Assembly: GCA_965198185.1 (NCBI GenBank)
Contig: CBDAOU010000001.1
Location: 370,212-434,211 of the forward strand
Length of the DNA stretch: 64,000 nucleotides
Source of the DNA: Chloroflexota bacterium
GTDB taxonomy: Bacteria > Chloroflexota > UBA11872
Reading direction: 5' to 3'
Part shown: positions 39,712 through 44,751 of the stretch, piece by piece
Layout: each line of letters starts with the position of its first letter
Position numbering within the stretch: position 1 is the stretch's first letter
Position numbers and translations under genes: made by a program
The notes under the pieces: generated by a model
Database searches by the model: none
What the model was told of the DNA's origin: nothing
What the model saw: only the letters and a program-made list of their open reading frames with translations

Positions 39712-40169
39712 GTCGACTCCGGCGATGCGTGGTTGGGGTGAGATATACGCGAGGCGCTCGACGAAGGCAAGCTCCCGCCGCACCAACCCTAGAAGGAGAT
39801 GGGCGTCTGGAGGATCGCCGCCGCGTCCTCCTCAACCGCATCGCGTGAGGTTAATCGGGCATCGATAAGGAATTAACCCAACGTCTATGGCTAGTCAAGA
39901 CCCCGCCTTAACCAGCGTGTGTAGGTTCTTGCTTGAGTCTAGATTGGTCGGCCTGTTTTGACGATAGACAGAACTGTCTTTGACCTGTGGCTCGGCGCTC
40001 TGTAGGTCCATTTTGGACGATAGAAAGAACCACTGAGTCCGATTTGGACGCTCGACGGCACCAAGTTCGAGAGGCGCATTGGCAGCCTGCGAATTCACAC
40101 CCATCGTGATGCGTCGGGGAGGAGGATTCCAAGTGCCTTCAGGGGTGCCGCTGCTGTTCCTTGGCCACT

Positions 40170-42188
40170 TTAGATCCAAAACCGCCACCACGAGCGGGTA
40201 GGCCCCAAGCGCCTTCCAAGGAAGGCCTCCAGACTGTTGCGGTTCAACACTGTTCTGTTGCCGCTACTCGCATCTTCATCGATGAGAGTGGATGGGACAT
40301 CCTCCCAGTCGAAGCCACGCCTCCCAAAAGCATCCCGCGGTTCCCAGACGATTATCCTGCTGCCGTCAACGGTCCAGCCGCTGGAGGCCTCACCTTCGGT
40401 TTTGCCGTAGGCTGATTTCCTGACTACACCCAAGAGGCGAGCCTTGACTCGATCATATCGCTTCTCCGCGTAGCCGACCCAGGTTACCCTCTGGCACCAG
40501 ATTGGTGGAGCGCCGACAGTATTCTCCGTCAGAATGTCGGCTAGGACTTCTGATGAAAGGGCTAGCCAGTCGTCGGGGAGACGTTCTGCGTCGATCCGGC
40601 TCATAACCTCAACTAGGTACCGCCTATACAAATGGCCCGTCAGGCCACGTCGTATCTCCTGCACACGGCCCTGAAGACGTTGGCGTAACTCTTCAGCATG
40701 GGCGGGCAAGGCAGTCGTCGTATATACCATCATGCTCCGCTTAACTATCTCGTCGGGAAACGATTGAGGCTCCGCGTTCATGGACAGAATGAACCCGGGG
40801 TACTCGGAGACGGCTGGCTGCAACTCGTCCTTGATCATGTCCCGGCCGTGACGATTGAACGCGGTTCGTCCAATATCATCGAACACGACGGGGAAGCGCT
40901 TGTAGCCGTGCTGTAATCCACGCAGCTGGGCCGTGGTGAAGCTCCGCTTGTCCAGCGTATGCGCAAAACCAAACATAGAGGTCATCAGAGTATCTACAAG
41001 GCTGGTCTTGCCGCAGTTGGACTTGCCAAACACTATGGCGAATGAGGGGTAACGAATGACGTCGCTGTCCTGCAGTAGGGCAAGGGAGCGAAGGTCACAC
41101 AAGAAAGGCGAGAAGTACAGCCAGGACATCAACGTGAAGTAGTCGTGCTGAAGTCTCGTAACGTTCCCCTCGAAGGCACCTTCGTAGTTCCTAAAGTAGT
41201 CGAACAGGAGCTCCGAATCACGCCTAACCAGCGAGCCATCCCACTCCAGTGAGAACGGCTCACCGGACAGCAAAGAAGTGTGATTTATCCTGTCGATGGA
41301 AAGGTAGCGACTGTCCGCCTCCTCAACGGACTTGACCAAGCGTATCCGGCTTATTTCCCGCTTGATTTCGGGAGTAATCGTCTGTCTACCGTTGCGAACG
41401 GCCGGTAGAGCACCAGATAGGCGCGGCCCCAACACGGCTGCGATCTTCTCGATACGCTCAATCTGCACCGGAGAAGACATCTGTGATTCTGAGGTTGTTG
41501 GTGCTTGGATGACGACCGTTCCATCTTCCGACATGATGGGGGTAGCGGAAACCTCTATCTCTGCATTGGTTATGCGCTCTTCCGGCAGCGGCACTTCGTC
41601 CGAAGCGGCGTCCCTGATTTCATCGAACATCCGATTGTAGTGGTTCCATGCTGCCTCGTCGTTGTCAAAGACGACCAGGGTTTCGGGCTGGTTCCCCGAG
41701 AAGGCTTGTTCGGACAGATTGGCGGAGCCGATGACTACACGCCTGCGTCCGTCCCTCCCCGAAAGAAGGTAGAGCTTTGCGTGGGCAATTGACTTTCTCA
41801 GGACTCTGAAATGGGCCTGGCCGGCATGAACCTTTTCGAGAATGCGGATGTGCCGTTCGTCCTTCAGTCCCATGATGGCAGCCCGGGTGTCCCCGACCAC
41901 TACCTTCTGAAATGCAAGGATGCTCCTAATCTCGCGCAGCGTCCCTTCGTATCCAAACACGCACTCGAAGGTCTCGAATGAATAGTTGTCCAACATCCTG
42001 ACGATGGCGTTCGTGCTTGCAGAGTATGTGAGGACCCGCAGGCTGGAATAACCTTCGAATAAAGCCCAGCTGAACTTTCTCTCACCTGCGAAGCTGGCGC
42101 GAACTACTCGTAGGCCGGTTCCGTCGTCTAATTCGAATGCCGATTGGCTGTCGGATTCTCCATTCGCTCCCGGCGATGATGGATTCAT
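40170..42188 (-). CDS. PLD-superfamily nuclease fused to a P-loop NTPase (candidate defence protein)
   Basis: HAKLY...IGSANLS...NQPE single PLD half-site; Walker A GKSNCGKT and Walker B VVFDD; GGAG RBS before the ATG. Confidence 0.8.
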   Translation of the reverse strand: MNPSSPGANGESDSQSAFELDDGTGLRVVRASFAGERKFSWALFEGYSSLRVLTYSASTNAIVRMLDNYSFETFECVFGYEGTLREIRSILAFQKVVVGDTRAAIMGLKDERHIRILEKVHAGQAHFRVLRKSIAHAKLYLLSGRDGRRRVVIGSANLSEQAFSGNQPETLVVFDNDEAAWNHYNRMFDEIRDAASDEVPLPEERITNAEIEVSATPIMSEDGTVVIQAPTTSESQMSSPVQIERIEKIAAVLGPRLSGALPAVRNGRQTITPEIKREISRIRLVKSVEEADSRYLSIDRINHTSLLSGEPFSLEWDGSLVRRDSELLFDYFRNYEGAFEGNVTRLQHDYFTLMSWLYFSPFLCDLRSLALLQDSDVIRYPSFAIVFGKSNCGKTSLVDTLMTSMFGFAHTLDKRSFTTAQLRGLQHGYKRFPVVFDDIGRTAFNRHGRDMIKDELQPAVSEYPGFILSMNAEPQSFPDEIVKRSMMVYTTTALPAHAEELRQRLQGRVQEIRRGLTGHLYRRYLVEVMSRIDAERLPDDWLALSSEVLADILTENTVGAPPIWCQRVTWVGYAEKRYDRVKARLLGVVRKSAYGKTEGEASSGWTVDGSRIIVWEPRDAFGRRGFDWEDVPSTLIDEDASSGNRTVLNRNSLEAFLGRRLGPTRSWWRFWI

Positions 42189-42287
42189 TTGGCTCCCCCG
42201 TGTATAGCTTGAAGGCGGGTGAAGTTCGGTTGCTGTGGTTCCGCGGACGATCCGCGCGCCAATGCGGTAGGCCTAGCACGCTCGCCG

Positions 42288-43163
42288 TCAGACCCGCTGG
42301 TGATGCTCTTGGTCAATCCTGCCGACATGATCAAAATGAGGATCTGGAATACTTCGGTAGACATCAAGCACCTCGTCGGCAAGATCAAACCGTTCAGTCA
42401 AGATGTCTATTGCGGCTTGAGTGATTAGGGAAGCGCATGCTGCGACTGCTGTGGGTGGCGCGTTGTTGACTGGCACCGAGCATCCCAGTTGAGGGGCCGA
42501 TGGTTCCTCGCTATCGTCCCCAGCGGGAATAGCTGGATAGTGCGTTAGGTCCCCACGCTGGTTAATCGGTGTATCGCTAGGCAACGCCTGCCGCTGCACC
42601 CGGCCAATGGGGCCGCCTCGATATAACGCTCCTGAGACAAGAGGCTTGTCCATGTCCTTTGTGATCATAGCTAACGAGAGAGTCAGAGCTTCACTGCCTG
42701 TCGTATCTATGACGATGTTGGCGTCTCCTACACGCTCCCTTACTTGGCTTGGCGTGCGAGGGGATTCCTGGACGCCGTTGACTTCGGTCCAGGGTGCATG
42801 GCCCTTGACCACGGCCCTGACCGCCTGCACCTTGGATGCGCCCACCTAGTCGTAGCCAGCCACGTGTCTCACCACGTTGCCAGGTAACAGGACGTCGGGA
42901 TCGACGATGTCCAGGAACCTCAACCCGCTTTCGGCAAGAAGGGTCGCCGTGTGCCCACCCAGAGCCCCTGCCCCGAACAAAACTGCCTTGCGAGTATGTA
43001 GGATCGGGGCGTCGGGTCCTGCCCGTAGAACAAGGCTGTGCTCATCGTTGGGCCCTGGTTGCATCGCGAATGCCTCCACTTGATCTCCCGTTCCTTTGCA
43101 CGCCATCACTAACAGGTCTGTTCGACCGTACCGTGGGGACCAAAACGCGGTTCGAATCTTAGA
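42288..43163 (-). pseudogene. ThiF/E1-like adenylyltransferase, 5'-truncated, with in-frame TAG
   Basis: LRAGP, GAGALGG, DPDVLLPGNVVRH, then TAG (42846-42848), VGASKV, IDTTG, GCSVPVNNAPP. Frame runs to the tRNA end with no native start. Confidence 0.82.
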
Positions 43164-43240
43164 TGGTGGGCGCGAGGGGACTCGAACCTCTGACCTCCAC
43201 GATGTCAACGTGGCGCTCTAACCAGCTGAGCTACGCGCCC
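43164..43240 (-). tRNA. tRNA-Val (GAC)
   Basis: 77-nt cloverleaf GGGCGCGTAGCTCAGCTGGTTAGAGCG-CCACG-TTGACAT-CGTGG-AGGTCAGAGGTTCGAGTCCCCTCGCGCCCACCA with encoded CCA. Confidence 0.97.
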
Positions 43241-43433
43241 GCGGCTCGGCTCGACCCGCGTGGTGGCGTCAGCATACTTCAGCGGCCTGCGGCGTCCCTG
43301 CTGCGGGCGGTGGGTAACTCTGCTTACTTCGGCATGCGTCCGGCGGAAGCGTTCTTGCCGAGCACCCTCACTCCCTGGTGAAGCCAGGGCCGGGCTGAAA
43401 CCTCCAAGAGGCTTTTCCTGACCCTGGAGAGGC

Positions 43434-44702
<1,269 letters not shown>

Positions 44703-44751
44703 TAGGCGCGCGGCGCATACTTGGGACGCCCGCGAGCGGGAATCTGCACGC

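Follow-up and report, generated by a model that had tools for sequence, protein, structure and literature searches.

A probable CBASS cap2 pseudogene next to tRNA-Val in a Chloroflexota genome and the PLD-NTPase gene linked to it

The Cap2 proteins of type II CBASS (V. cholerae, E. cloacae; PDB 7TO3, 7TSQ) have a ThiF-type adenylation domain without CxxC motifs and a catalytic Cys in the crossover loop (C548). They are E2-linker-E1 fusions encoded directly after a CD-NTase that ends in Gly, and the gene order in V. cholerae is capV-dncV-cap2. The domain layout and catalytic residues of Cap2 used here are those of Ledvina et al. (bioRxiv 10.1101/2022.03.31.486616), and the comparison also draws on Jenson et al. 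2023 (PMC10097602). In the systems studied, the C-terminal Gly of the CD-NTase is adenylated by Cap2, and all Cap2-bearing CBASS systems are said to encode Cap3 (both Ledvina et al.). Two other groups of E1 enzyme have to be considered. MoeB/ThiF share the Rossmann-like adenylation fold, and the Bil/Bub systems include a defence-associated E1 (BilD type) that is found in defence islands; there Ubl, E2 and DUB are encoded by genes of their own, and a CD-NTase is lacking.

The window examined here, a stretch of 64,000 nt of DNA from a Chloroflexota bacterium, contains an E1-like frame on the minus strand, read from 43163 to 42288 and translated as ...RYGRTDLLVMACKGTG...FGAGALGGHT...DIVDPDVLLPGNVVRHVAGYD-stop-VGASKVQAV...IVIDTTGSEAL...QLGCSVPVNNAPP...QRV-stop. 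It had been predicted to be a decayed, zinc-less Cap2/Bil-like E1, the residue of an operon linking ubiquitin-like conjugation to the PLD-NTPase gene that follows it. The features of the region are collected in Table 1.

Table 1. Positions of the Cap2 remnant and of the features around it in the window
Feature	Position	Strand	Remarks
tRNA-Val(GAC)	43164..43240	-	ARAGORN; 3' CCA end at 43164 is the proximal islet edge
Junction, 29 nt, TCTAAGATTCGAACCGCGTTTTGGTCCCC	43135..43163	-	Matches neither Cap2 nor the tRNA flanks of relatives
Cap2 remnant, first piece	42849..43134	-	Residues ~238-333 of a 519-aa protein
TAG nonsense codon, in frame	42846..42848	-	Stands at a Gln position of intact relatives
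Cap2 remnant, second piece	42288..42845	-	Residues ~335-519
Spacer from Cap2 stop to PLD-NTPase start, 99 nt	42189..42287	-	Kept in all relatives
PLD-nuclease/P-loop NTPase gene, intact, 672 aa	40170..42188	-	Pfam PLDc_2, RE_NgoFVII, weak RNA_helicase
Distal non-coding tail of the 3.2-kb block	39935..40169	-	Imperfect 27-nt repeats 39950-40063, palindromic core 39958-39992

All of the E1 motifs named in the original prediction (GAGALGG, DPD..N..RH, K, IDTTG and LGCSVPVNN) were found in the translation of the remnant, and the zinc sites said to be missing are indeed absent, with 0 CxxC motifs in the translation or in the family alignment A2. The in-frame TAG is present in the assembly sequence. 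The frame had also been described as cut off at the CCA end of the tRNA; Cap2 homology ends at 43134, 29 nt before the CCA, and the continuation of the open frame past this point into the tRNA is evidently due to chance. The co-orientation with the PLD-NTPase gene and the gap of ~100 nt were likewise borne out, the remnant stop lying 99 nt upstream of the PLD-NTPase start at 42188.

The first piece of the remnant covers the end of the linker and the start of the E1 adenylation domain, including the Gly-rich ATP loop FGAGALGG and DPD..LLPGNVVRH. It is 87% identical to the Cap2 homolog P0121, and its nucleotide sequence is 91% identical to that of locus L003 from 7054 onward. The second piece runs to the C-terminus and its native stop codon (42288-42290) and includes IVIDTTG and, within LGCSVPVNN, the Cys of the crossover loop. 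At the TAG site, L148, the closest intact relative, encodes Gln by CAG, and L003, L004 and L086 do so by CAA. In the alignment, the remnant begins at residue ~238 of 519, without the E2 domain or the greater part of the linker; C84 (VCMW), the E2 Cys invariant in intact homologs, is lost with them. With the TAG and no native start codon, the window copy has no uninterrupted reading frame. It therefore differs from known Cap2 in the lack of residues 1-237, in the stop codon and in the lack of a CD-NTase or effector in its genome.

The part of the protein that remains is only slightly altered. Changes were found at 4 of the 95 family-invariant residues covered by the remnant, as compared with 0, 0, 0 and 2 in four intact controls, and dN/dS between the remnant and intact copies is 0.17-0.23, against 0.16 for an intact pair. 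As the ratio is barely above that of the intact pair, most of the divergence should be older than the inactivation. Given such slight decay at the sequence level, it is the truncation, the stop codon and the absence of partner genes that mark the copy as a pseudogene.

The remnant, with X at the stop, matched Pfam ThiF (E=1.8e-19) and the PADLOC CBASS model PDLC00847 'E1-E2' (E=7.4e-96). The latter match was limited to profile positions 249-516 of 523, which identifies the remnant as the C-terminal half of an E2-E1 fusion; an intact relative matched positions 2-516 (E=8e-176). A database search returned 572 homologs, of which the best are 87-88% identical, and the 120 best are mostly 510-525 aa in length. 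The eleven homologs in alignment A2 share an N-terminal domain with the invariant Cys, the E1 motifs and an invariant GCSAPVNN. A recurrent E1-only form of 250-330 aa was considered and rejected, as both of the proteins checked (P0127 and P0176) are halves of frameshifted full-length genes. P0121 aligned to the solved Cap2 structures 7TSQ, 7TSX and 7TO3, at low identity and with E of about 1e-7. Its residues 276-459 align to residues 369-551 of 7TO3, and C456 falls on position 548, which is Ala in the deposited 7TO3 mutant. The window sequence LGCSVPVNN is equivalent to LGCSAPVNN of P0121, and its Cys corresponds to the E1 catalytic C548 of E. cloacae Cap2.

The assignment as a decayed zinc-less E1 was thus narrowed. 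Both the PADLOC match and the operon context described below place it in CBASS Cap2, but the likeness to Bil did not stand. The N-terminal domain of the intact homologs, about which an E2-like nature had been suspected, proved to be an E2 plus linker fused to the E1. Of the E2 and JAB genes said to accompany such enzymes, the E2 is therefore present in fused form, but a JAB gene is absent beside this Cap2 clade.

That the remnant belongs to another E1 family (Bil/BilD, 6A-MBL cap2_3 or housekeeping MoeB/ThiF) has a probability close to nil. Bil and JAB-E1 operons do occur in related islands, and NCBIfam models gave weak matches to the remnant, namely 80 bits for 6A-MBL cap2_3 and 33-48 bits for the ThiF/MoeB models. 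However, the former is far below the curated cut-off and the latter have cut-offs of 152-647, and the CBASS E1-E2 model is the best by a wide margin. A CD-NTase precedes every intact homolog with an identifiable upstream gene, and the JAB-E1 of L149 fails to align with the remnant (tblastn). The adenylation fold and motifs are those of MoeB/ThiF, as the Pfam match indicates, but the absence of zinc sites and the genomic context set the remnant apart; another, weaker ThiF-family match on contig 2 of the genome is probably the housekeeping copy. Unlike the separate genes of Bil/Bub, the homologs of the remnant are fused E2-E1 proteins in cyclase operons, and no BilA, BilB or BilC-type genes were found in the operons of its intact homologs. 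It is also extremely improbable that a miscalled base produced the TAG and that the stump still yields an independent E1 protein (~270 aa from MACKGTG...) with a residual or new role. This would agree with the retention of all adenylation motifs and the catalytic Cys, with the little-raised dN/dS and with the many E1-only gene calls of 250-330 aa in databases. Yet the two short calls traced to their loci are fragments of frameshifted full-length Cap2 (in L150 and L151), the stump has lost the E2 domain with its Cys and most of the linker, there is no CD-NTase in the genome to serve as substrate, the scans gave no promoter-like site, and most of the stump is deleted in the related locus L147. 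As judged from the sequence, the segment 42288-43134 is a pseudogene of a known family, CBASS Cap2, and neither a MoeB/ThiF nor a Bil enzyme.

The intact Cap2 relatives (81-90% identical) are located in operons of patatin, CD-NTase and Cap2 genes. The order patatin, SMODS cyclase, Cap2 was seen in L003, L004, L086, L087, L148 and L150, which is the order of effector, cyclase and cap2 known from V. cholerae, and the CD-NTase is present in the intact relatives L003, L004, L086, L087, L088 and L148. As in known systems, the E2-linker-E1 fusion directly follows a CD-NTase ending in Gly, the cyclases of the relatives terminating in ..RRMG, ..RFG or similar, i.e. ..R(M/F)G. PADLOC analysis of this operon recognised a phospholipase effector (1e-83), the cyclase (5e-113) and the E1-E2 protein (8e-176), with weak matches to capH/capP, and genes for CapH/CapP-like regulators accompany some copies, including L003/L005. 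Since the intact operons carry patatin, the effector of the lost operon should have been a phospholipase and not the PLD-NTPase. Intact Cap2 would adenylate and conjugate the C-terminal Gly of the CD-NTase and so prime cyclic-nucleotide signalling that leads to activation of the phospholipase; these steps have been established in V. cholerae and E. cloacae, and we infer them by homology for the present operon.

None of the partner genes accompanies the remnant. The window includes no upstream CD-NTase and no effector gene, and no match to a SMODS (CD-NTase) gene was found anywhere in the genome to which the window belongs. No high-scoring Cap2 match (E<=1e-40) was listed for 8 genomes of the same genus, and a Cap2 search of 401 genomes of the phylum gave only one other match; Cap2 relatives beyond the phylum search came from metagenome contigs and exact-protein look-ups.

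Unlike known type II CBASS, the Cap2 clade at 54-90% identity to P0121 has no JAB/Cap3 gene beside Cap2. Cap3/JAB genes adjoin Cap2 only in distant homologs (35-50%; L128, L133, L134 and L141), with a Prok-JAB match of 1.2e-11 in L134. Among the contexts compared (L003, L004, L086, L087, L088 and L117-L131), the CD-NTases of loci without Cap3 nearly all end exactly in Gly (..RMG, ..RFG, ..GFG), the exception being L129. The CD-NTases of the Cap3-bearing loci L133 and L141 have residues beyond the Gly, and that of L128 ends in ..KFG. The full-length Cap2 operons without a JAB gene hence look like a Cap3-less variant of type II CBASS, and the ancestor of the remnant would have been the last gene, an E2-linker-E1 cap2, of a Cap3-less patatin / CD-NTase / Cap2 operon.

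The segment 39935-43134 (3.2 kb) shows 87-92% nucleotide identity to L003/L005, L004 and L148, starting at Cap2 codon 238, and in these loci it constitutes the tail of the intact operon plus the PLD-NTPase gene. Its G+C content also sets it off, being 55-60% over about 39800-43160 and 63-77% on both sides. In the same-genus genomes, divergence sets in right after the CCA of tRNA-Val, and exact matches to the 29-nt junction are confined to loci of the window's own genome. The junction is not peculiar to a single assembly. L147, an independent assembly represented by a 25.7-kb metagenome contig with the same neighbours as the window (amtB, PALP-domain and liv-type ABC-transporter genes), aligns to 42944-43310 at 96% identity across the junction. 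It lacks 42289-42944 of the window (656 bp, between two TCGCCGT repeats), by which the TAG site is removed. Since L147 shares the order tRNA, 29 nt and Cap2, the truncation predates both later lesions and is no assembly artefact.

Over about 40000-43280 the islet is 93-98% identical to L147, whereas the adjacent chromosomal genes are 76-92% identical. The collapsed islet should therefore have been exchanged after the hosts diverged, and the pattern implies a recent horizontal exchange between diverged hosts. In an ancestor common to the window and L147, a deletion would have removed the tRNA-Val-proximal edge of the island up to cap2 codon ~238, taking with it the genes for the regulators, effector and cyclase as well as the E2/linker part of cap2. 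Erosion of the stump would then have continued, by a CAG to TAG change in the window genome and by loss of the 656 bp between the TCGCCGT microhomologies in L147.

The same-genus genomes (G366, G358, G326 and G035; L110-L113) vary in what lies between tRNA-Val and the liv ABC-transporter genes. This interval spans 3.2 kb in G366, with a QueC-like/DpnII-type REase pair, and 3.3 kb in G358, with GmrSD and PIN genes. Other same-genus intervals are of 17-22 kb, those of G326 and G035 (17-19 kb) encoding a phosphotriesterase and a 3423-aa type I PKS. The interval is evidently a hot spot of integration and defence. In a search for an att site, the 3' end of the tRNA was not found repeated in direct orientation at the distal islet edge, where only chance-level 13-mers were present; homology to G366 starts again at 39978 and extends leftward.

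The palindromic core at the distal end of the block reads AGACAGAACTGTCT. Similar 35-nt matches adjoin the 3' end of tRNA-Val in G254 (L104, 1473-1507) and occur in L122 and after a decayed CBASS operon in L151, and a sequence related to the core occupies the same native position in G366. The core may be a recombination or terminator element. On the other side of the islet, just upstream of tRNA-Val, the window has a 1.4-kb insertion (43295-44705) of 72-77% G+C that is absent from all 4 same-genus relatives examined and from L147, in which 43294 joins 44706.

The PLD-NTPase next to the remnant has 1026 homologs. Members of the family are 59-96% identical across MAGs of Chloroflexota, Latescibacterota, Actinomycetota and Longimicrobiales, a conservation that is unusually high for so wide a host range. 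In L063, L080, L081 and L082, the PLD-NTPase copies are themselves split or interrupted. Like stand-alone PLD-nuclease/ATPase restriction-type proteins (e.g. the NgoFVII PLD domain), the protein combines PLD and NTPase parts and is encoded by a solitary gene, with only weak matches in Pfam and PADLOC. No cyclic-nucleotide sensor domain was detected in it by Pfam. Its dN/dS is 0.10-0.13 and about equal with or without an intact Cap2, and the 99-nt spacer is retained even where Cap2 has been lost, in L147, L149 and L006. In simple consensus scans, neither a terminator in the spacer nor a promoter-like sequence in the region was detected.

The adjacency itself was reproduced in other genomes, Cap2, a spacer of ~100 nt and the PLD-NTPase gene following in the same order in L003/L005, L004 and L148. 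It had been stated that intact homologs in CBASS or JAB operons, never next to a PLD-NTPase gene, would make the adjacency an accident of island collapse. Intact homologs do lie in CBASS operons, but the closest of them adjoin PLD-NTPase genes. The arrangement was evidently inherited from the intact island and is no accident of the collapse.

To judge how general the pairing is, the neighbourhoods of about 90 of the 1026 PLD-NTPase homologs and about 25 of the 572 Cap2 homologs were read. On the PLD side, a scan of species-representative genomes, excluding the species of the window, gave 80 loci with PLD-NTPase homologs at 59-95% identity, from the four groups named above. In 77 of these, CBASS genes are lacking over about 10 kb, as far as the contigs extend. 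Cap2, cyclase and patatin genes lie upstream of the PLD-NTPase gene in L004 and L005 only, and L010 has patatin and cyclase genes divergently oriented, on the opposite strand, beside it. No neighbour family recurs in more than 10 of the 80 loci, and the recurrent neighbours (type I R-M methylase, Fic, zeta-like toxin and housekeeping enzymes) reflect lineage synteny. In a maximum-likelihood tree, the Cap2-linked PLD-NTPase genes of the window, L004 and L005 form one tip clade among solitary ones. On the Cap2 side, 16 distinct loci whose Cap2 is 35-73% identical to P0121 and that extend at least 2.5 kb beyond it all lack the PLD-NTPase gene downstream, and among the loci read, the gene never follows a Cap2 homolog of less than ~80% identity. 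The genes that follow Cap2 in these 16 loci encode a GmrSD_C-domain protein, AbiEi, a resolvase, HEPN or MBL-fold proteins and, in the most distant, JAB/Cap3.

Within the shallow clade, losses have occurred on either side. In L086 the CBASS operon is intact and 1593 bp are deleted inside the PLD-NTPase gene, and in L150 the CBASS genes are present (with Cap2 frameshifted) and the PLD-NTPase gene is reduced to its last 44 codons. Conversely, L149 lacks Cap2 and retains an intact PLD-NTPase gene, the spacer and 18 nt of the Cap2 tail, L006 likewise has the PLD-NTPase gene intact behind the spacer and a Cap2 tail of about 45 nt, and the window and L147 combine a truncated Cap2 with an intact PLD-NTPase gene. 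From these reciprocal, independent losses it follows that each module persists without the other.

The original prediction of a joint operon, with a PLD-NTPase effector under the control of ubiquitin-like conjugation, did not survive these comparisons. The common strand, the spacer of ~100 nt conserved in the window, L003/L005, L004, L148 and L086, and the failure to detect a terminator between the genes speak for it, but the operon already has a phospholipase effector, most PLD loci are without CBASS and the 16 Cap2 loci without PLD-NTPase, either gene has been lost with the other kept, and Pfam reveals no cyclic-nucleotide sensor domain in the PLD-NTPase. Such an operon is highly unlikely. 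Secondary recruitment of the PLD-NTPase in the shallow clade only, as a second effector or a target of Cap2 conjugation that is still able to act alone, is very doubtful, since at least three lineages have lost Cap2 and at least two the PLD-NTPase gene within that clade, and selection on the PLD-NTPase is about the same whether Cap2 is intact or not. The adjacency has nevertheless been kept through ~9-13% nucleotide divergence (L003, L004, L148, L086 and the window), and the PLD-NTPase gene sits in the slot of the Cap3 gene that this Cap2 clade lacks. There is correspondingly little likelihood that a PLD-NTPase in the Cap3 position is coupled to Cap2 by co-transcription, as a conjugation target or as a second effector; if it were, the gene surviving in the window would come from a new hybrid of CBASS and a nuclease. 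The shared orientation and conserved short spacer, seen in the window and wherever a relative has both genes whole, and the failure of the simple scans to find a promoter or terminator consensus make read-through co-transcription possible in intact islands, and a small residual chance is left to co-transcription or secondary coupling within the shallow clade.

The distribution and the losses indicate that the PLD-NTPase gene is an autonomous neighbour outside the CBASS operon and that the pairing is a physical linkage within a defence island. Very probably, then, 42288-43134 is the dead stump of a type II cap2 gene left by a deletion on the tRNA-Val side, and the PLD-NTPase gene is a separate, linked gene. 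The latter would have arrived behind cap2 once, in the ancestor of the shallow defence-island clade, and would persist under purifying selection with its own 99-nt upstream region.

Further systems were observed in the related islands. A three-gene operon encoding proteins of 89 aa and 113 aa and a 499-aa JAB-ThiF (DUB-E1) fusion occurs in L149 (2006-4112), L086 (1-1398) and L004 (455-2552), divergent from a trio of Sigma70_r4-like, 300-aa and SMC-like ATPase genes. The two small proteins had no PADLOC match, and the operon looks like another ubiquitin-like conjugation system of the same island lineage. The second E1 in L149 was considered as a sign of a general link between E1 and PLD-NTPase genes and rejected: a lipoprotein-like ORF lies between the operon and the PLD-NTPase gene, and the operon is confined to the lineage of L004, L086 and L149 and absent from other PLD loci. 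L150 (7120-9999) carries a Bil-type operon (BilA_UBL_2, BilB-like, a 178-aa gene and BilD_N+ThiF), a separate gene set about 1.3 kb downstream of the frameshifted Cap2 and the PLD relic. A second decayed CBASS operon was found in L151 (1304-5984), a contig of 5x coverage, with patatin, cyclase and Cap2 genes all frameshifted and CapH/CapP-like genes intact; the frameshifts may be real decay or assembly errors.

In itself, the Cap2 remnant is ordinary, a pseudogene of a well-studied defence gene. The clade of full-length Cap2 from which it descends, without Cap3 and with cyclases that already end in Gly, is an exception to the published statement that Cap2 is always accompanied by Cap3. The natural reciprocal knock-outs strengthen the case for the PLD-NTPase as a candidate single-gene defence. 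Finally, the window and L147 show, in two independent states of decay, how a defence operon at a tRNA-Val hot spot erodes step by step.
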